From assembly GCA_963823335.1 (NCBI GenBank), contig CAWGLD010000004.1, positions 96,001-160,000 of the forward strand: DNA of 64,000 nucleotides, in the 5' to 3' direction. The position numbers and the translations under genes were made by a program. The notes under the pieces are model-generated. The model saw nothing but the letters and a program-made list of their open reading frames with translations. It did no database searches and was not told the DNA's origin. Origin of the DNA: an uncultured delta proteobacterium. Its GTDB lineage: Bacteria; Desulfobacterota; Desulfobacteria; Desulfobacterales; B30-G6. Numbering within the stretch: position 1 is the stretch's first letter; each line of letters begins with the position of its first letter. Below are positions 10,667 to 47,156 of the stretch, in pieces.

Positions 10667-10744
10667 ATGTGTTATCTTTCTAAATAGTTATTTGTGATAC
10701 CATTATAAGTGCTTATCAACTTCTTGGGTGACTATTCTGAGTCA

Positions 10745-10900
10745 GGGTTTGAGGGGTGGAGGGGTGCGGCTTGCAGGATAATAGACAATAAACTGTATAT
10801 TACTAAACACCTAATAGTCTGCTGTCTACTACTTGTTGTCCGGGTATACCCTCCAACCCATCAAACCTCCAACCCTCCAACCCTTCAATCCTCCAACCCT
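10745..10900. repeat. Inverted octamer arms (GGGTTGGA / TCCAACCC family) overlapping the ispF 3' end
   Basis: GGGTTTGAGGGGTGGAGGGG at 10745 and ACCCTCCAACCCATCAAACCTCCAACCCTCCAACCCTTCAATCCTCCAACCCT at 10848-10900. Confidence 0.65.
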
Positions 10901-17203: not shown

Positions 17204-18877
17204 ATGGACTACTTCAGTATTCTGAATTTAAATAAAGAACCTTTTTCCAATTCTCCGGACCCAGATTACTTTTTCAACTCCCAGCAGCATGTCAGCTGCC
17301 TACAGAAACTGGAATTGTCCTTGCGGCTCAGACGGGGGTTGAATGTGGTTATCGGGGAAGTCGGGACCGGGAAAACGACCCTCTGCCGCCAGCTTCTGCG
17401 ACGGTTTTCCGATGACAGTGAAATCGAGTCACATCTAATCCTAGATCCCCATTTCAGCACGCCCCATGAGTTTCTGCTGGCCGTGACGGAAATGCTCACC
17501 CATGAAAAACACGCCGAAAATATCGATGACTACAAACTGAAAGAACACATCAAAAACACCCTTTTCACCAAAGGCGTCGATGAAAACAAAACCGTTATTC
17601 TCATCATCGATGAAGGCCAGAAAATTCCGATCTTTTGTCTCGAATTACTGAGAGAGTTTCTCAATTTTGAAACAAACGATTATAAATTGCTTCAGATCGC
17701 AATTTTTGCCCAGAGAGAATTTGACAATACTCTCAAAAAACATGCCAATTTCGCTGACCGGATAAATCTCTACCACCTGCTGAAGCCGATGAATTTCAGC
17801 GATACACGCGCCATGATCCAGTATCGTCTGAACCAGTCGAGCGCTGCGGCAAAACGACTTGCCCTGTTCACCTACCCTGCCCTGTGGGCTATTTACCGAG
17901 CCACGAATGGCTATCCGCGTAAAATTGTCAACATCTGCCACCGCAGCATTCTGACGATGATCATTCAGAATAAAAGCAAAGCCAACTGGTTTTTGGTTCA
18001 ATCGTGCATACGAAGGGTCTTTTCTTCCGGGAAAAAACGATCATGGCAATTTGCAGCCATTCTCATTATTGTTCTCCTCGGTACCATCTTCACCATCCCT
18101 AGATGGCTTCCAAATCAGACCACAACACCCTTTTTAAAAGAAACCGAAGCTTCCAGAGAAACCGATACCGTGTCCATGAACCCCGGGCCGGCAGCCCCAC
18201 CCTTGACAAACGTTGGCTCGGATACCATCGTAACTTCCAATGCCAATGCGACTCCGCAAACAGATGTACCCGTCATGCCGGACACGTCAAACCTGTCAGG
18301 AGACGTCCCTGAAACCCCGGATAGAGCCCAGCTGCAGGCTTCTGTCACCAGCGTTTCAGATGTGACACCTCCTGAAATACACGAAGTCCCCGGAGTACTG
18401 GGACAAATTAAAGTCAAGCGGCATGAGACCCTCGGTGGACTCATCCAGACAATTTACGGGGCTTTCCACAAGACCCATCTCCAGTCTGTCCTCCGGATCA
18501 ACCCGCACATAAAAAACCCGGACACCATCAGCATAGGTGAAGTGATCCTTTTCCCGGCCATTGCTTCCCATGTGGAAGAGCCGCCATTGAAACGATGGTG
18601 GGTTCAAATTGCCCAGGAGGATACCCTGGAAGCCGTTTTCATGTTTTTACGCCAGCACACCACCGTCGCTCTTTCCGCACGTCTGGTCCCACATTGGAAC
18701 CGTTCTTCAGGACTTCAATTTTCAGTGCTTCTTAGCCAGCCTTTTTTTGATGAGGCTTCAGCTGTCAACAAGCTTGAACATCTTCTTTCAAGCAGCGGTA
18801 CAAAAGCAGGGATCGTTTCCGATTGGGACTCACACACTGTTTTTTATGCAAATCCTTATCAAAACACGAACACGTAA
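17204..18877 (+). CDS. ExeA/MshM-like AAA ATPase with TM and LysM/SPOR-like C-terminus
   Basis: PFSNSPDP, GEVGTGKT, LIIDEGQ and GYPRKIVNIC; LysM-like ETL..IYG..INPHIKNPDTI. Confidence 0.8.
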   Translation: MDYFSILNLNKEPFSNSPDPDYFFNSQQHVSCLQKLELSLRLRRGLNVVIGEVGTGKTTLCRQLLRRFSDDSEIESHLILDPHFSTPHEFLLAVTEMLTHEKHAENIDDYKLKEHIKNTLFTKGVDENKTVILIIDEGQKIPIFCLELLREFLNFETNDYKLLQIAIFAQREFDNTLKKHANFADRINLYHLLKPMNFSDTRAMIQYRLNQSSAAAKRLALFTYPALWAIYRATNGYPRKIVNICHRSILTMIIQNKSKANWFLVQSCIRRVFSSGKKRSWQFAAILIIVLLGTIFTIPRWLPNQTTTPFLKETEASRETDTVSMNPGPAAPPLTNVGSDTIVTSNANATPQTDVPVMPDTSNLSGDVPETPDRAQLQASVTSVSDVTPPEIHEVPGVLGQIKVKRHETLGGLIQTIYGAFHKTHLQSVLRINPHIKNPDTISIGEVILFPAIASHVEEPPLKRWWVQIAQEDTLEAVFMFLRQHTTVALSARLVPHWNRSSGLQFSVLLSQPFFDEASAVNKLEHLLSSSGTKAGIVSDWDSHTVFYANPYQNTNT

Positions 18878-18882
18878 AAGAA

Positions 18883-19162
18883 GGATTCAAGGATTCCAGG
18901 GGTCCAGGGTTCGAGTGAGATGAAGTGAGGCATCAGCTAAATGCTTAAAAATTGTAAAGAGTTAAAAGTTGTGGATTGGAAACACAGACGATGATATCCG
19001 GTGTTTTGGATTATATGAACAAGAAAAAGCTTCAGGGATTAAGAGAGGAGCTTGGGGATGTAGAGAGAATGCTAAAAGCGATGATCAAATCCCTGGAAAA
19101 CAAACACTTCAATCCTTGAATCCTGGACTCCTTGAACCCTTTCTCCCAACTTGTTGGGAGAA
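18883..19162 (+). mobile_element. Family B (octamer-arm) cassette B1 carrying a deleted four-helix-bundle gene
   Basis: Left arm GGATTCAAGGATTCCAGGGGTCCAGGGTTCGAGTG; right arm CACTTCAATCCTTGAATCCTGGACTCCTTGAACCCT followed by hairpin TTCTCCCAACTTGTTGGGAGAA. Confidence 0.8.
18941..19119 (+). pseudogene. Four-helix-bundle (23S-IVS-protein/S23-like) gene remnant
   Basis: MLKNCKELKV joined out of frame to LETQTMISGVLDYMNKKKLQGLREELGDVERMLKAMIKSLENKHFNP*; the middle of the gene is absent. Confidence 0.75.
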
Positions 19163-19193
19163 GAACTAAAGAATAAAACAAGCGAGATAAACT

Positions 19194-20906: not shown

Positions 20907-20912
20907 AAACTA

Positions 20913-21390
20913 ATGAACATCGAACATCGAACGTCCAACATCGAATTTTGAATAAAAAGATAAAGAAACAGGCGTATGATCTGGAAGAAAGGTTGCTCGA
21001 GTATTCGGTGAGAATCGTAAAACTCGTTGAACAACTTCCAAATACCAAGGCAGGCAGTCATATTGCGGGGCAATTGTTAAGATCTGGAACTTCACCATAC
21101 CCAAATCATGGTGAAGCTCAGGCAGCGGAATCCCCGAAAGACTTTATCCATAAATTACGTATTTCATTAAAGGAACTCAGGGAAACCCAGCGATGGTTAA
21201 AATTAATACAGCGAGTACCACTAATTAAAAAGCCTGAACTATTGAAGGATATTATCGAGGAAACTGAAGAATTAATTAAGATTTTCGTCGCGAGCATTAA
21301 AACTGCGGAAAAGAGAAAGAGATAATTCATTATTGTTTGTTTTTCATTCGACATTGGACGTTCGATGTTCGATGTTGGACGTTCATCTTT
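20913..21390 (+). mobile_element. Family A cassette, full-length copy A3: inverted heptamer arms enclosing a four-helix-bundle gene
   Basis: Left arm 20913-20951, gene 20948-21325, right arm 21343-21390; sits between pilB and pilC. Confidence 0.85.
20948..21325 (+). CDS. Four helix bundle protein (TIGR02436 / 23S rRNA IVS protein / bAvd-like family)
   Basis: YDLEERL..IVKLVEQLP..QLLRSGTS..NHGEAQAAESPKDFIHKLRISLKELRETQRWL..ETEELIKIF is the family pattern; 125 aa. Confidence 0.9.
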   Translation: MNKKIKKQAYDLEERLLEYSVRIVKLVEQLPNTKAGSHIAGQLLRSGTSPYPNHGEAQAAESPKDFIHKLRISLKELRETQRWLKLIQRVPLIKKPELLKDIIEETEELIKIFVASIKTAEKRKR

Positions 21391-21423
21391 AAATAACCAA
21401 GAAAACCCAACAAACAGGTTATT

Positions 21424-31041: not shown

Positions 31042-33219
31042 TTGAACATAAATACCATTCTGAAAAAATACAAAACTTCTGAAAGAAAAACACTCTCAGA
31101 ACACGAATCCAAACAGATACTGCAGGCCTATGGTATCCCTGTTGTCCGGGAGACCGTCGCTACAACAAAAGAAAACGCAGTGGCGGCAGCCCTGGAAATC
31201 GGCTTCCCCATCGTTTTGAAGGGACTGGGTGCCCGGTTGACCCACAAGACCGAGCGCGGTCTGGTGCATACGCACCTGAAAACCAAAACCGAGGTTCGAT
31301 CAGCCGCCGAGAACATACAGCAAAAGGCCGGGAGTGATCTGGAAGGCTTTCTTGTCCAGCCCCAGATCCAGGGGAAAAGGGAGTGGATCGCGGGTCTTTC
31401 CCATGACGATCAGTTCGGACCGGTCATCATGTTCGGTGCCGGCGGCATTTTAACCGAAGCCATCTCGGATGTGACCTTCCGCCTTGCGCCTTTGTCACCT
31501 GAGGACGCCCAGGCGATGATCCATGAAATCAAATCATCTGCCTTACTCGACAATTTCCGGGGCGAGGCAAAAATTGACAAAATACAGCTCGTTAAAGTTC
31601 TCACAGGTTTGAGTAAACTTGTCCAAGATCATCCTGAAATTGTCGAGGTGGATATCAACCCCCTCATCGCGACTCCCAGCGGGGATTTAATGGCCGTCGA
31701 TGCGCTGGTGGTTGTGGGTACCAAACACCAAACAGCCGCCTCACCTCCCAGCACCTTCCAACCGGAGTCTCTGATGCCCTTCTTTTATCCCAAATCCATT
31801 GCCTTTATCGGTGCCTCTGCCACCATGGGCAAGTGGGGCCACATGCTGGTGGCAAACACCAAAAGCGGCGGCTATGCGGGAAAGATATACCTTGTCAATC
31901 CAAAAGGGGGGAAAATTGTGGGCCAAGAGGCCTATCGATCCCTTTCCGATATTCACGACCCGGTCGACCTTGCCATCGTCACCATACCGGCCGAACATGT
32001 GATAAGCCTGATTCCGCAGCTACAGGCAAAAGGCATCCATCACATGCTTCTGATAACCTCAGGATTCTCCGAAACCGACAACGCCGGAAAAAAACGCGAA
32101 AAAGAACTGGTCGCATCGGCGCGGCAGGCCGGAATCCAGATACTGGGTCCCAACACCATGGGTATCTGCAATCCCCACGTGGCTCTCAACTGCACCAGCC
32201 TGCCCGTACAACCGAGACCGGGATCCACCGCTCTTGTATCCCAATCCGGGAACATGGGCACCCAGTTCCTGGCCTTTGCAGAACATCAGGGCATCGGTAT
32301 CCGTGGTTTTTGTGGGTCCGGCAATGAAGCCATGACCACCATCGAAGACTTTCTGGAAGTTTTTGAAGCGGATGAGCTCACAAAAACCGTCATGCTCTAT
32401 ATCGAAAGTGTCAAAAATGGCCGTCGCTTTTACGAGACCGCCAGGCGTCTGGGGAAAATAAAACCGATTATTCTGATGAAAGGCGGACAAACTCAAGCCG
32501 GCATCAAGGCGGCAGCCAGCCATACCGGAGCGTTGAGTACCGATGCCAGAATTTTCAATTCGGTTTGCAGGCAGGCAGGCATTGTCAAGGTGGAACAGTC
32601 CATGGATCTGCTCGATCTGGCTGCGGCCTTCTCTTCCCTGCCGCTGCCCAAAGGCAATCGTGCCGGTATCATGACCCTTGGGGGCGGCTGGGGTGTGGTC
32701 ACCGCCGATCTGTGTAACGAATACCATATAGACGTTCCAGACCTGTCCCCCGGTCTGATCGAGCAGATCGACAAGTGGCTGCCCCCTTTCTGGAGCCGAT
32801 CAAACCCCATCGATCTCGTTGGAGAACACAACGACACCCTGCCGCTGACAATTATCGAAGAACTCTTAAAATGGGACGGCTGTGATGCCGTTATCAATCT
32901 CGGTATCATGGGTCGCAAACATCTGGCCGGACTCTATGTCGATGCTGTCAAGCGTTCTGACCCCATGTACGAGCCCTCATTTTTAGACAGCATTAAAGAA
33001 ACACTAGCGGCATTTGAAAAAAGATATGTCGAAGAAATCGCCAGACTCATGGAGATCTACCAGAAACCCGTTATCGGCGTCTCCCTCTTGACAGATGCCC
33101 TGGATCGTACCACGTATTTGGTTGAAAACTGCCCATACAAAGGTGTTTTCTACACAACCCCGGAGCGCGCCGTTAAAACGCTGGCTAAAATGGTGCAATA
33201 CAGTAAGTATAAAACGTAG
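31042..33219 (+). CDS. ADP-forming acetate/acyl-CoA ligase, ATP-grasp domain N-terminal (beta-alpha fusion)
   Basis: LSEHESKQILQAYGIP, HKTERG and EVDINPL, then the CoA-binding part (IAFIGAS, GPNTMG, SQSG, AAASHTGAL, NPIDL). Confidence 0.88.
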   Translation: MNINTILKKYKTSERKTLSEHESKQILQAYGIPVVRETVATTKENAVAAALEIGFPIVLKGLGARLTHKTERGLVHTHLKTKTEVRSAAENIQQKAGSDLEGFLVQPQIQGKREWIAGLSHDDQFGPVIMFGAGGILTEAISDVTFRLAPLSPEDAQAMIHEIKSSALLDNFRGEAKIDKIQLVKVLTGLSKLVQDHPEIVEVDINPLIATPSGDLMAVDALVVVGTKHQTAASPPSTFQPESLMPFFYPKSIAFIGASATMGKWGHMLVANTKSGGYAGKIYLVNPKGGKIVGQEAYRSLSDIHDPVDLAIVTIPAEHVISLIPQLQAKGIHHMLLITSGFSETDNAGKKREKELVASARQAGIQILGPNTMGICNPHVALNCTSLPVQPRPGSTALVSQSGNMGTQFLAFAEHQGIGIRGFCGSGNEAMTTIEDFLEVFEADELTKTVMLYIESVKNGRRFYETARRLGKIKPIILMKGGQTQAGIKAAASHTGALSTDARIFNSVCRQAGIVKVEQSMDLLDLAAAFSSLPLPKGNRAGIMTLGGGWGVVTADLCNEYHIDVPDLSPGLIEQIDKWLPPFWSRSNPIDLVGEHNDTLPLTIIEELLKWDGCDAVINLGIMGRKHLAGLYVDAVKRSDPMYEPSFLDSIKETLAAFEKRYVEEIARLMEIYQKPVIGVSLLTDALDRTTYLVENCPYKGVFYTTPERAVKTLAKMVQYSKYKT

Positions 33220-33393
33220 GGTCCGAGGGTTCAAGGGTGATACAAGGGTTCGAGGGTAGCTGACGGCTATCGGCGGAGAGCAGCATCCCAGCCTCCGGGC
33301 GTTCCAGCATGCAAAGATGCAAGGACAAGCTATAAACCAGCGGCTATAGACTGTTAGCCGCCTACAGCCTAACAGTCTATCAGTCTAACAGCC
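33220..33393. repeat. Patchwork of short tandem-repeat arm fragments
   Basis: GGTCCGAGGGTTCAAGGG..GGGTTCGAGGG directly after the stop codon, then CAGCATCCCAGCCT..CCAGCAT and CCTACAGCCTAACAGTCTATCAGTCTAACAGCCT. Confidence 0.6.
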
Positions 33394-33471
33394 TCCCGTT
33401 AGGCAAAGCCTGTGGGATTAAATAGAGCGGCAAGACCGCGCTTCATAAAATTGCGGAGTGATTTTATTATT

Positions 33472-38564: not shown

Positions 38565-38825
38565 AAAAGATGAACGTCCAACTTCCAACATCGAACGTCC
38601 GGTGATGAGTCAACTACCACCCGTGAAACGGGTGGTTTGTTTTTGCCCCAAAATGGGGGAAAACAAAGGAGACGGCACGTCTCCGTAAGTTCAGGTTCGG
38701 AACCGCGTGCCAAGCACGCGGTTTGTAGAACAATCAAAAAAAATACTAACCCCCAGGTCTCACGCCTGTTTCTTCACCTTTTTCATTCAAAATTCGATGT
38801 TGGACGTTCGATGTTCGACGTTCAT
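38565..38825 (-). mobile_element. Family A cassette A9, interrupted by a 124 bp insert and flanked by family B ends
   Basis: Left arm 38825-38787 and right arm 38600-38565; B arm at 38857-38883 and B hairpin at 38535-38552. Confidence 0.8.
38609..38732. mobile_element. Miniature IS200/IS605-like element (two terminal hairpins, no gene)
   Basis: GTCAACTACCACCCGTGAAACGGGTGGT at one end and AACCGCGTGCCAAGCACGCGGTT at the other; no target duplication. Confidence 0.55.
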
Positions 38826-38883
38826 TTTTTTTACTATTCGAGGTTCGATGTTCATTCCCCGGACCCCTGGAACCCTCGAACCC

Positions 38884-41091
38884 CTATTTACTGAACTTAT
38901 CCTGAATGGTCTTTTTCCGACGTGTCCGTCTGGCCCAGACCGCCAACCCGAAAAACACAACCACAACCGGTAGACCGACAATATTGAATGCTTTGACGGC
39001 TGTTTTGGTGAAAGCACCTGTTTCGTCCAGCGGTGTAAAGCGCTGCTGTTTGCTCCGCAAGCGGGCCACATCTTCCTGCTGGTTCAGGTAATCCAAAATG
39101 TTCATCACGAAGATATCGTTGACACCCCGGCCCTCCCTGTCCAGGAGATTGTCTTTGATCATGTCGCTGGACGCCAGGATGAATATCTTTCCGGGCTTGC
39201 CCTTTTCGATGATTTCACCCTCTCTTTGGATCATTTCCGTGGTATCCGCCGCTTTTTGCGGTTCTGTCCCGGTGAGGTCTTCATCTTTTCCCGACGGGTT
39301 GGCCGGTTCTTCCTGCTGGGGTCTTTCAGGCGCCGGCCTTCCCGCAAAATAGCTGGGAAATTCTCCCTCAAGCATGTATGCCAGATCAAATTTTTTCCTC
39401 TCAATATCCGGATCCGGGAGTTTAATGAAGTTGGGATTGAGATTGATATCCTCTTTCATCTCCCAGGCACGCGCTGAAGATTGAAACAGCAGCGTGGCTT
39501 TCAGGTTATGGGTCCTGATCTTTTCCAAATCGATGCTGATGGGTGAAACTTTCAGCGCGATAAGCGCTTTGATATTCTGCATATAGCCAGGTTGATTGTT
39601 GATATTGGCATTCTTGATCAGCGGTGCAAAATAAATCGGCCTTTCACCACCGCCCATTTCGCGTGGCATCGGTTGCTTGAAACATTCCTCGTCATTGACA
39701 ATCGAGGGGTGCACTTCGATCCCGTAATGAAACAGGAGCTTTTCAAGACCTGATTGCATGGGAACGAAATCAGAATTCGCTCCCGGCATCTGGAAACCGG
39801 TGTTGGCCGAGGGAACCTCACGCAGGCTGTCCATAAAGATTGCCAGGCTTTTTCCTTTCATCAAAAACTGATCGATCTGGAAAAGGTCGTAATCTGAAAA
39901 TTTTTCCTTGGGTCCGGGTATAACCAGACAGTTGACAGTGTCCGGCAAGGAGCCTTCTTTTAATGCCACCTCTTTCAACGAATAATTCTGGCTCGCCAGC
40001 GAGTTAAAGTTTGCAGCCTGCTCCGCTGGCGGCCCGAATTGACTCGCCTGGGGTGGCGAAACAATGGCAAGACTGTCAAAATCCGTCAGAACACCCAGAT
40101 TCTGATTGATATCGATGAGCGATTCCATATTGGCAGCGATGACTTCTTCCATCTGTTCAAGCCCGGCCAGTTGGTACTGCGTTCCGAAAATGGGAACATT
40201 TATGACCTGCATCAGCGGGGAGGTGATCGTCTTTTTACCGTAGGCCATCACGAGACCGATGGCACCCTGGCCGGCAGGTATCTTTCCATTGTCAAGCTCC
40301 GGCCAACTCAGGCTCAATATCCGCAACTTCTCCAGATCATCATTGAGGTCGGGATCCAGAGTGGGATCCTTGTGCTCGAAGACCAGCTTATCATAGCTGT
40401 TGATATTGATCCGGCCAACCATCTCCTCCAATTGCTGGGGCAAATTTTTCAAGTCCTCGAGTTTCATGAGAGGAGCCACATCCATGAGGGACGAAGACAT
40501 GAAGAGGTCAACGTGGATTTTGTCCTCCAAGGCCAGCAGGGCGCTGACTTTGTTGTTGAGCTTCCGCATGGCCATGGTCAGCTTGTATTCGAGTCCATCC
40601 GTGGTGGTTATGGTTGGAATACGCTCAATCTGGTCGCCATGAATCATCGCCAGGCCCATATATGCCTTTTGAAAGGTGACTTCATCTTTTTCGATGGCCT
40701 GTATCTGAATCGGATGGATTCCAAGATTGGTAGCCAAAGCCTGGTTCTGGGTTGTTTCATTGTTTAAATCGCCCTGGTCCGGGCTGACATCATAAAAGCG
40801 ATAGTTGAAATTTTTATTGGCCGAAGCAGCGTACTCCGACAACAGATCCTGAAGGTAGCGCTCGGTACTGTTGTGGGGCGCCGGAAGGTTCCTGGAGAAA
40901 AACACATTGATGGTGAGCGGTTCCTTGAGCGTCGACACAACCGTTTTGCTGACATCTGAAATGGAATAGAGTTTTCCTGCAGTCAGGTCCATTCTTTTAA
41001 AAAAAGTCAATCCCGCCGTATTCAACAGCACCACAACAACAGCATAGGTGATAAATTTGTAATATTTTGACGACTTATGCACTGGTTTCAT
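38884..41091 (-). CDS. GldG-like ABC transporter auxiliary protein
   Basis: RMDLTAGKLYSIS..L.EPLTINVFFS, DLFQIDQFLMKG and MNILDYL; C-terminal TM. Confidence 0.82.
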   Translation of the reverse strand: MKPVHKSSKYYKFITYAVVVVLLNTAGLTFFKRMDLTAGKLYSISDVSKTVVSTLKEPLTINVFFSRNLPAPHNSTERYLQDLLSEYAASANKNFNYRFYDVSPDQGDLNNETTQNQALATNLGIHPIQIQAIEKDEVTFQKAYMGLAMIHGDQIERIPTITTTDGLEYKLTMAMRKLNNKVSALLALEDKIHVDLFMSSSLMDVAPLMKLEDLKNLPQQLEEMVGRININSYDKLVFEHKDPTLDPDLNDDLEKLRILSLSWPELDNGKIPAGQGAIGLVMAYGKKTITSPLMQVINVPIFGTQYQLAGLEQMEEVIAANMESLIDINQNLGVLTDFDSLAIVSPPQASQFGPPAEQAANFNSLASQNYSLKEVALKEGSLPDTVNCLVIPGPKEKFSDYDLFQIDQFLMKGKSLAIFMDSLREVPSANTGFQMPGANSDFVPMQSGLEKLLFHYGIEVHPSIVNDEECFKQPMPREMGGGERPIYFAPLIKNANINNQPGYMQNIKALIALKVSPISIDLEKIRTHNLKATLLFQSSARAWEMKEDINLNPNFIKLPDPDIERKKFDLAYMLEGEFPSYFAGRPAPERPQQEEPANPSGKDEDLTGTEPQKAADTTEMIQREGEIIEKGKPGKIFILASSDMIKDNLLDREGRGVNDIFVMNILDYLNQQEDVARLRSKQQRFTPLDETGAFTKTAVKAFNIVGLPVVVVFFGLAVWARRTRRKKTIQDKFSK

Positions 41092-46545: not shown

Positions 46546-46812
46546 TTTTCATCCCTTCCTCCCTGTTTTTGCTTCAATTTGGGAGAGGCCATTGCAGATC
46601 CAATATGTAGATACCCGGGTCCAAAGAGCCTGGCACTGATTAAACCCTGAAGGGTTTTTAGGATCATGTTCGTTTGTAACAAATTCTAAATTCGAATATC
46701 GAAATACCACAATAAATCCAAATATCAAAACTTCTTTTTTATTGCTCCGCAGGTCTACTACGAATAAAGCCGTTAATATTTAGACACGATCAGTTGTAAA
46801 CATTTAAGATTT

Positions 46813-47050
46813 TTCTCTCAATTAGGAGAAAGGGTTCAAGGAGTCCAGGATTCAAGGGTTCAAGTGTTTGTTTTCCAGGGATTTGATCAACGTTTTTAGC
46901 ACGTTATCTAAATCCTCGATCTTTTCTCTTAATTCTTGAAGTCCTTATAAATATCCAAACAAAGTTTATACAATTTTTACTTAACGTTTAACTCTTCATA
47001 ATTTCTAAACACTCCACTCGAACCCTGGACCCCTTGAATCCTTGAACCCT
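46813..47050 (-). mobile_element. Family B cassette B2 with deleted four-helix-bundle remnant (46852-47012)
   Basis: Arms match B1; minus-strand remnant VFRNYEELNVK*KLYKLCLDIYK / GLQELREKIEDLDNVLKTLIKSLENKHLNP*. Confidence 0.8.
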
Positions 47051-47156
47051 TCATTTTAATCAACTCTTTTGGAGAAGATCTACCTTTAATAATAGAGTTT
47101 TCAAACACAATTTATGTCTAAACAATTATGGTCTTATTAGTAAATAGGAATGCTGC

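Follow-up and report, generated by a model that had tools for sequence, protein, structure and literature searches.

The window analysed here, the whole 64,000-nucleotide (nt) stretch of an uncultured Desulfobacterales genome taken from contig CAWGLD010000004.1 (positions 96,001 to 160,000), contains two loci in which inverted arms built of tandem octamers enclose the remains of a small gene of the PF05635 (S23p, four-helix-bundle) family. These loci are very probably dead copies of a non-autonomous transposon, designated family B, which under the existing class names would be a mobile insertion cassette with MITE-like derivatives (MITE, miniature inverted-repeat transposable element). In its full form, the element runs from an outer inverted end of ~22 bp, apparently of ISL3 type, through a linker to a 5' arm, which holds four tandem octamers (AGGRTTCN). 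A 123-amino-acid (aa) PF05635 gene follows, whose stop codon falls within the complementary 3' arm, and the second outer end closes the element.

The genome (G000; 11 contigs labelled C1 etc., assembly 93.9% complete) gave 22 matches in a whole-genome PF05635 profile search. An earlier reading made from the letters of the window (the sequence-only reading) had envisaged an intact family-B copy elsewhere in the genome, and one intact element of 489 bp was indeed found at C2:127685-128173. It holds a single 123-aa open reading frame (ORF; C2:127754-128125) and no transposase. The encoded protein scores 135.3 bits against PF05635 (gathering cut-off 33.8). Among solved structures, its closest match is 2gsc (XCC0516; E 7e-25, residues 5-117), with 2rld at E 2.4e-4. 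A second full-length copy of the gene carries a TAG. Genome-wide, 127 octamer arrays were identified, made up of 33 convergent pairs within 700 bp and 61 partnerless arrays. Twenty-seven of the 33 pairs were aligned, the six omitted (C1:184029, C1:325848, C1:1543876, C4:106744, C5:174153 and C6:140489) having other units or being very short, and all 27 share outer ends beyond the arms, the arms themselves and homologous gene remnants. At least 26 family-B copies besides the intact one are decayed.

In the window, the sequence-only reading had recognised octamer arms around an internally deleted gene at the ExeA-like/pilB junction. This description of copy 1 stands, both ends of the gene being kept (Table 1). 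Its inverted arms are 37 nt each and 78% complementary, and the linker holds the TAA stop of the upstream gene (18875-18877). Copy 2, which sits in an intergenic spacer, shows an inverted repeat of 46 nt (46821-46866 and 47015-47060, 78% complementary). The proposed kinship of the remnants with the four-helix-bundle family was borne out by BLASTP: in copy 1, the C-terminal remnant (18976-19116) shares 31 of 47 positions with residues 77-123 of the intact family-B protein (E 4e-21), and that in copy 2 shares 16 of 29 with residues 95-123 (E 9e-10). A Pfam search with the 47-aa fragment of copy 1 alone matched no family, and neither window remnant is among the whole-genome PF05635 matches, both falling below the cut-off on their own.

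Aligned with each other, the two copies show 81% column identity and differ in their internal gaps, in agreement with the different deletion assigned to the second copy, and the first ten gene codons are retained in both. Copy 2 had been placed at 46813-47050. The locus was correct; the extent was too short, as the whole element reaches further on both sides and includes an outer 5' end (47056-47081). The terminal hairpin ascribed to both copies is present as a perfect 10-bp stem in copy 1 (19141-19150/19153-19162), and is degenerate in copy 2.

Table 1. Positions of family-B copies, lone octamer arms and the family-A cassette in the window.
Feature	Position	Strand	Remarks
Family-B element, copy 1	18875..19167	+	outer 5' end missing; internal deletion
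Copy 1, 5' arm	18881..18917	+	4 tandem octamers AGGRTTCN, then AGTG
Copy 1, N-terminal gene remnant	18942..18971	+	MLKNCKELKV; reading frame lost beyond
Copy 1, C-terminal gene remnant	18976..19119	+	stop codon within 3' arm
Copy 1, 3' arm	19105..19141	+	complement of octamer array
Copy 1, outer 3' end	19141..19167	+	terminal inverted repeat, apparently of ISL3 type; folds as 10-bp hairpin
Family-A cassette	20913..21386	+	intact PF05635 gene 20948-21325, between pilB-type and pilC-type genes
Lone octamer arm	33219..33255	+	directly 3' of stop codon of ORF 31042-33219 (+)
Lone octamer arm	38858..38883	-	directly 3' of stop codon of ORF 38884-41091 (-)
Family-B element, copy 2	46808..47081	-	both outer ends kept; 3' end degenerate
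Copy 2, 3' arm	46830..46866	-	from inverted-repeat search
Copy 2, C-terminal gene remnant	46855..46944	-	from match to intact protein
Copy 2, N-terminal gene remnant	46983..47012	-	VFRNYEELNV
Copy 2, 5' arm	47015..47051	-	from inverted-repeat search

Outer ends, target duplications and deletion forms

The sequence-only reading overlooked the outer transposon ends and the target duplications, which together explain the spread of the copies. The 5' end of family B and the reverse complement of its 3' end form an inverted repeat of ~22 nt. For the 20 elements with both ends within 800 bp of each other, the 8 nt before the element were compared with the 8 nt after it. The 8-bp flanks are identical in six of these elements and match at seven or more positions in nine. 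Perfect flank matches were absent at lengths 5-7 and 9-12, and lengths of 2, 3 and 4 gave three, one and one, respectively. The mean flank match was 5.7, as compared with 3.58 for re-paired flanks (largest value 4.7 in 2000). The duplicated 8-mers are A/T-rich and different in each copy. In the window, the flanks of copy 2, ACATTTAA and ACCTTTAA (46800-46807 and 47082-47089), agree at seven of their eight positions. ISL3 elements duplicate 8 bp of their target.

A second PF05635 family, with arms of the hexamer GGGATC, is present as five near-identical copies of 693 bp. Its ends are like those of family B, and perfect 8-bp duplications flank all five copies. The protein of the hexamer family is 25% identical to that of family B, and the occurrence of two unrelated PF05635 lineages in shells with near-identical ends points to repeated capture. 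In a genome of the same order (G024), a PF01610 transposase of 426 aa (234.7 bits) is encoded by an insertion sequence (IS) of 1353 bp (L125:259-1611). Three of the five hexamer-family copies have a 3' end identical to the first 24 nt of the end of this IS, and a fourth copy agrees at 23 of 24 positions. The outer ends of family B thus appear to be of the ISL3 type. From the enzyme of this relative, we infer that an ISL3-family transposase supplied in trans would have moved the element, with insertion into A/T-rich intergenic 8-mers that would become duplicated in the process. PF01610 matches were found in 6 of 30 relatives, and among the nine other genomes of the same genus only as a fragment, in G002. 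An autonomous partner was also sought in the genome itself, where pairs of motifs resembling the terminal inverted repeats, 0.7-6 kb apart, held ordinary genes and no transposases.

Decay has removed the interior by deletions that fell either between the arms or close to them, and the shortened forms have in turn been multiplied. The deletion form of copy 1 is found in four dispersed copies (89-96% alike) and that of copy 2 in two (89% alike). A 359-bp form and a form of 136 bp (arm to arm) each have three copies, which are 97.5-98.9% and 94-95% alike, respectively. The smallest family members, of 54-79 bp (C1:934799-934869, C1:239889-239967 and C7:386305-386358), have little left besides one collapsed arm unit and both ISL3-type ends.

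An element of ~136 nt with GC-rich hairpins was also observed, nested in the interval that separates the gene from the 3' arm in four of the five hexamer-family copies (C2:13116, C4:31300, C4:218509 and C4:342130). Inserts related to it occur in two family-B copies, at C1:792993 and C7:11623.

Repeat words, protein lineages and the role of the arms

Related loci were gathered using four family-B-like proteins, which gave 80 loci from many phyla with a bias towards relatives of family B. A flanking inverted repeat that outscored all 20 shuffles was found at 66 of the 80. When a stricter test that adds tandem periodicity was applied to 87 rows (79 loci and eight genes from this genome), 47 passed, 36 of them with heptamers, 10 with octamers and one with nonamers. 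The closest relatives, all of which carry the same octamers, are from a Desulfosarcina metagenome-assembled genome (MAG), an uncultured deltaproteobacterium and a Desulfobacterales MAG (86%, 76% and 72% protein identity, respectively). The Desulfosarcina locus has both ISL3-type ends, and the 3' end is kept in Desulfobacterales locus L026 and in a further deltaproteobacterial locus, L038. A Nitrospirae relative (68% identity) and others have the arms without ISL3 ends. Arms and gene together probably represent an older unit, far more widespread than the ISL3-type shell that it occupies in this lineage.

The repeat word tracks the protein clade, both in this genome and among the 47 loci. In this genome, each of eight PF05635 lineages has a repeat unit of its own. 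In a tree of the 47 proteins, built by a quick method that starred 3 of 44 inner branches, family B groups with its three octamer relatives (Shimodaira-Hasegawa-like approximate likelihood-ratio test, 89), three octamer loci of Flavobacterium make up a starred clade, and several heptamer clades have near-identical words. The octamer label requires four changes on this tree, compared with 9.3 as the mean and 6 as the lowest value over 300 shufflings of the labels. The cyclic distance between units rises with protein distance (Mantel Spearman 0.156, reached by 1 of 2000 permutations). Mean unit distance was 0.09 for the 8 pairs at a protein distance below 0.3, 0.40 for 71 pairs at 0.3-0.45, 0.45 for 587 pairs at 0.45-0.55, 0.47 for 308 pairs at 0.55-0.65 and 0.49 for 107 pairs above 0.65, random words giving 0.50. 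Hence, the link between word and protein is strong among close relatives only, and fades to random beyond ~50% protein divergence. As the 47 rows are kin and were chosen for having arms, these figures describe the tracking rather than prove it. Elsewhere in the genome, two adjacent diverged PF05635 genes (C4:64095-64838) have no detectable arms in their flanks.

The sequence-only reading had explained the association of word and protein by co-evolution of protein and repeat. The part of this claim that unit follows clade holds. Mutual adaptation is not required, since gene and arms form one physically linked unit and shared descent is enough to explain the link. The arms are nevertheless not neutral DNA: the family-B protein is under purifying selection (ratio of non-synonymous to synonymous substitution rates, dN/dS, of 0.185 against the 86%-identical Desulfosarcina homologue), and against the 76% homologue the consensus unit is identical even though dS is saturated. 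In the transposon interpretation, each protein lineage would have its own word through the joint descent of arms and gene, with the arms also under constraint.

Features shared by the words themselves were also found. The dinucleotide AG occurs within the 5' arm words, read on the sense strand of the gene, at 40 of 47 loci, against a mean of 27.9 and a maximum of 38 when letters were shuffled within units (0 of 2000 shuffles reached 40); the rows being kin, this figure is a lead only. The arm words are C-poor, with CC in 1 of 47, and the usual arm length is 4-5 units. A G-quadruplex role for the arms was considered and rejected as not general, given that GG is present in 27 of 47 units and is absent from family A.

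In the minimum-energy RNA fold, the arms pair with the gene in the loop, and each outer end forms a hairpin of its own (z-scores: intact element, -4.2; copy 1, -6.3). Arm pairing was counted over alignment columns in 25 elements, two of the 27 having been dropped for a missing unit, and amounts to 86.6% in register and to 85.4% after a shift of one unit. The predicted arm stem thus appears to be real but imperfect, and is tolerant of register shifts. The role favoured for the arms on this analysis is that of an intervening-sequence-like stem, which would be excised from, or tolerated in, operon transcripts, in analogy to the RNase III excision known for intervening sequences that bear S23p (PMC4990558). 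By pairing in the transcript, the arms would close the gene into a long imperfect stem, allowing the cassette to sit in operons at little cost to the host, and arms of tandem words would tolerate slippage because several pairing registers are available.

Several observations weigh against the interpretation of family B as an ISL3-mobilised cassette with pairing arms. The match between the family-B ends and the ISL3 end at L125 is limited, at 16-18 of 23 positions. The search of this genome with PF01610 (ISL3) gave no match in an assembly that is 93.9% complete, a search for rve transposases in the genome was likewise negative, and the ends of the resident IS256-, IS1595- and DDE_Tnp_1-type elements are unrelated to those of family B. 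Family A and most of the foreign loci carry no transposon ends. With regard to the stem, four arm mismatches are conserved in 18-22 of the 25 copies and are never compensated, a pattern that sequence conservation within each arm explains no less well than does selection for pairing.

Co-evolution in the strict sense, with a four-helix-bundle oligomer binding its own arm words in DNA or RNA and each partner selecting for the other, is considered unlikely. It would account for the separate unit of each protein lineage, for a unit kept despite saturated silent sites, for arms that each keep their own sequence with uncompensated mismatches included, for the AG common to the words of 40 of the 47 loci, and for the 4-5 units of most arms. 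The closest solved relatives, 2gsc and 2rld, were both deposited with five chains, and the available part of a Coxiella paper (PMC4990558) calls the Xanthomonas protein a homopentamer. However, linkage alone predicts the co-variation, which turns random beyond ~50% protein distance. Many copies devoid of the gene, and many lone arms, persist with no protein supplied in cis, and the tree is weakly resolved, with 3 of 44 inner branches starred, for loci that are kin.

A more specific form of this idea, that of a putative word reader, is more doubtful still. The PF05635 protein would read its own words of 7-8 nt, consisting of an AG core and a lineage-specific part, with one word per subunit of a ring oligomer, and the cassette would thereby be maintained or inserted, for example in hairpin loops or IS-derived shells. 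If true, this would constitute a natural, diversifying protein-word recognition code across bacterial phyla.

It is most improbable that the octamer arrays are subterminal transposase binding sites that extend the transposon ends, with the gene as mere cargo. Subterminal repeats do occur in many transposons, and the arms lie inverted directly inside the ISL3-type ends. However, the real ISL3 element of G024 has no such arrays behind its ends, similar arms flank the gene in phyla and loci without ISL3 ends (family A included), and the hexamer family combines near-identical ISL3-type ends with quite different arm words. There is also very little to recommend the view that the arrays stand by themselves, as simple-sequence or G-quadruplex repeats like those of Xanthomonas and Nostoc, and lie beside gene fragments by chance. 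The arms do match the GGGAATC repeats, as set out in the available part of PMC4692102, in having four units with G-tracts, in their convergent pairing and in their placement just after stop codons, and 61 arrays lack a partner within 700 bp. However, all 27 aligned pairs have outer ends in common and homologous remnants of the gene between their arms, units without a G-tract such as GAACATC build the same architecture, and lone arms are explicable as stranded halves of the type forming at the ExeA-like/pilB site in the congeners G002 and G003.

Insertion sites and other word arrays in the window

Copy 1 lies between an AAA_22 (ExeA-like) gene and a pilB-type T2SSE gene, and not in a 23S rRNA helix. 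The neighbourhood consists of genes for a secretin, the AAA_22 (ExeA-like) ATPase, T2SSE (pilB-type) and T2SSF (pilC-type). The ExeA-like/pilB junction was compared in six close congeners, whose genes on either side are 85-88% identical, three further genomes being too diverged to call. The site is empty in G007, G004 and G001. Just the linker and 3' end are left in G005, just the 3' arm and end in G002, and just the 5' arm and first gene codons in G003. As G000, G005, G002 and G003 share the site or the loss of the outer 5' end, the insertion of copy 1 is old and inherited, and has been worn down separately in each lineage. Among the matches listed, element-like pieces were found in at least 11 of 30 other genomes.

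Between the pilB-type and pilC-type genes lies the family-A cassette, to which family B had been proposed as a second, parallel cassette family, a relationship upheld here. Family A has heptamer (GAACATC) arms at 20913-20946 and 21346-21386, carries no ISL3-type outer ends, and encodes a protein scoring 56 bits against PF05635. At this junction, cassette A is present in G000 and G005, in spacers of 517 and 522 nt, respectively, and gene-less hairpins of 117-212 nt with other words are found in G007, G004, G002, G003, G001 and G009. The hairpin at the junction (window 20907-21423; L113-L120) differs in its words between nearly all congeners; those of the gene-less hairpins are of the TTTTAAG-, GTTCTTTG/GGGTTCGTT- or GGCTGTTA-type. 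Scraps of GGGTTCGTT-type arms flank cassette A in G005 and G000, and cassette A thus seems to have landed inside an older hairpin. Contig X8, from an RNA library, joins the pilB-type and pilC-type genes via 82 other letters that replace a stretch of 507 nt, with 2 and 5 mismatches over 277 and 339 nt. Being near-identical without this stretch, it would represent a very close strain that lacks cassette A. All four metatranscriptome runs consist of contigs, those matched to the window come from a strain without cassette A, and depth peaks at the arms reflect the repeats of many organisms.

An octamer-pair pattern gave 19 matches in the window, as compared with a mean of 0.25 and a maximum of 3 in 100 shuffles. 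Of these matches, sixteen belong to the GGRTTC type and fall in six places, namely both arms of both copies and the two lone arms of Table 1. The lone arms, which the sequence-only reading had reported to follow stop codons, do abut the ends of two ORFs. Just behind the first, at 33256-33395, is a further hairpin made of GCTGACG/GCTATCG-type words and their complements, and a similar core is found at C1:325817, enclosed in an element of 157 bp that has ISL3-type ends. The second adjoins family-A-type heptamer arrays in GATGTTC orientation (38797-38857), in a mosaic of stranded arms. The remaining three matches are of the GGGTTGGA type (10866-10899), within a gene-less hairpin of 157 bp (10744-10900) with GGGTTGGA-type octamer arms. 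The GGGTTGGA word also flanks the PF05635 gene nearest to family B (62% identical, C7:178049).

Comparison with known systems

The means by which rRNA intervening sequences (IVSs) spread with their S23p gene, and the function of the encoded protein, are questions that date to the early 1990s. According to the available part of the Coxiella paper (PMC4990558), IVSs with an S23p ORF have complementary ends at their borders and are excised by RNase III, and both their transposition and a need for the ORF in mobility are merely hypothesised. Family B resembles the 23S rRNA IVSs of Coxiella burnetii and Leptospira, as described there, in having a PF05635/S23p gene in the loop of a stem of complementary ends, a total length of ~430-490 nt, a decay-prone gene and a long-suspected mobile origin. 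Unlike them, it sits between protein genes and not in rRNA, and it has outer transposon ends, 8-bp target duplications and dozens of copies. Its arms are tandem octamers with conserved mismatches, whereas the IVS has a near-perfect 28-bp stem in the same source. An S23p-type gene is thus found here on elements with marks of mobility, namely ISL3-type ends, 8-bp duplications, empty sites and propagated deletions, which would fit cut-and-paste or copy-and-paste movement.

With mobile insertion cassettes and MITEs, family B has in common the terminal inverted repeats that match a real IS, the A/T-rich 8-bp target duplication, the lack of an internal transposase, the propagation of deleted forms and the empty site in relatives. 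It differs in that the cargo is an intervening-sequence-type gene enclosed in its own second pair of inverted arms, and in that the assembly holds no cognate transposase. The accessory protein of diversity-generating retroelements, bAvd, belongs to a related fold family, and the family-B protein scores 26.5 bits against PF22296 (bAvd-like), below the cut-off of 40; unlike those retroelements, the 489-bp element has no reverse transcriptase, template or variable repeat. In the literature searched, which did not extend to subscription journals, no paper was found that reports this element family or that joins S23p/PF05635 genes to MITEs, IS ends or heptamer/octamer arms. Family B offers concrete material for experiments on mobility, RNA processing and word binding. 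For annotation, it suggests that much of the intergenic repeat content of this Desulfobacterales-type genome is the wreckage of one class of element.

The arms also invite comparison with the GGGAATC heptamers of Xanthomonas and the GGGGAYT (STRR-type) repeats of Nostoc described by Rehm et al. 2015 (PMC4692102). In the available part of that paper, no association with mobile elements is reported and S23p or four-helix-bundle genes have no occurrence. As far as the repeats are described there, family B shares with them the tandem G-rich words, the preference for four units, the convergent pairs on opposite strands and the intergenic position near stop codons, whereas its unit is 8 nt and its arrays are the arms of a gene cassette. 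The tandem-word arms of this S23p-type gene thus resemble the unexplained heptamer and octamer repeats of Xanthomonas and cyanobacteria.

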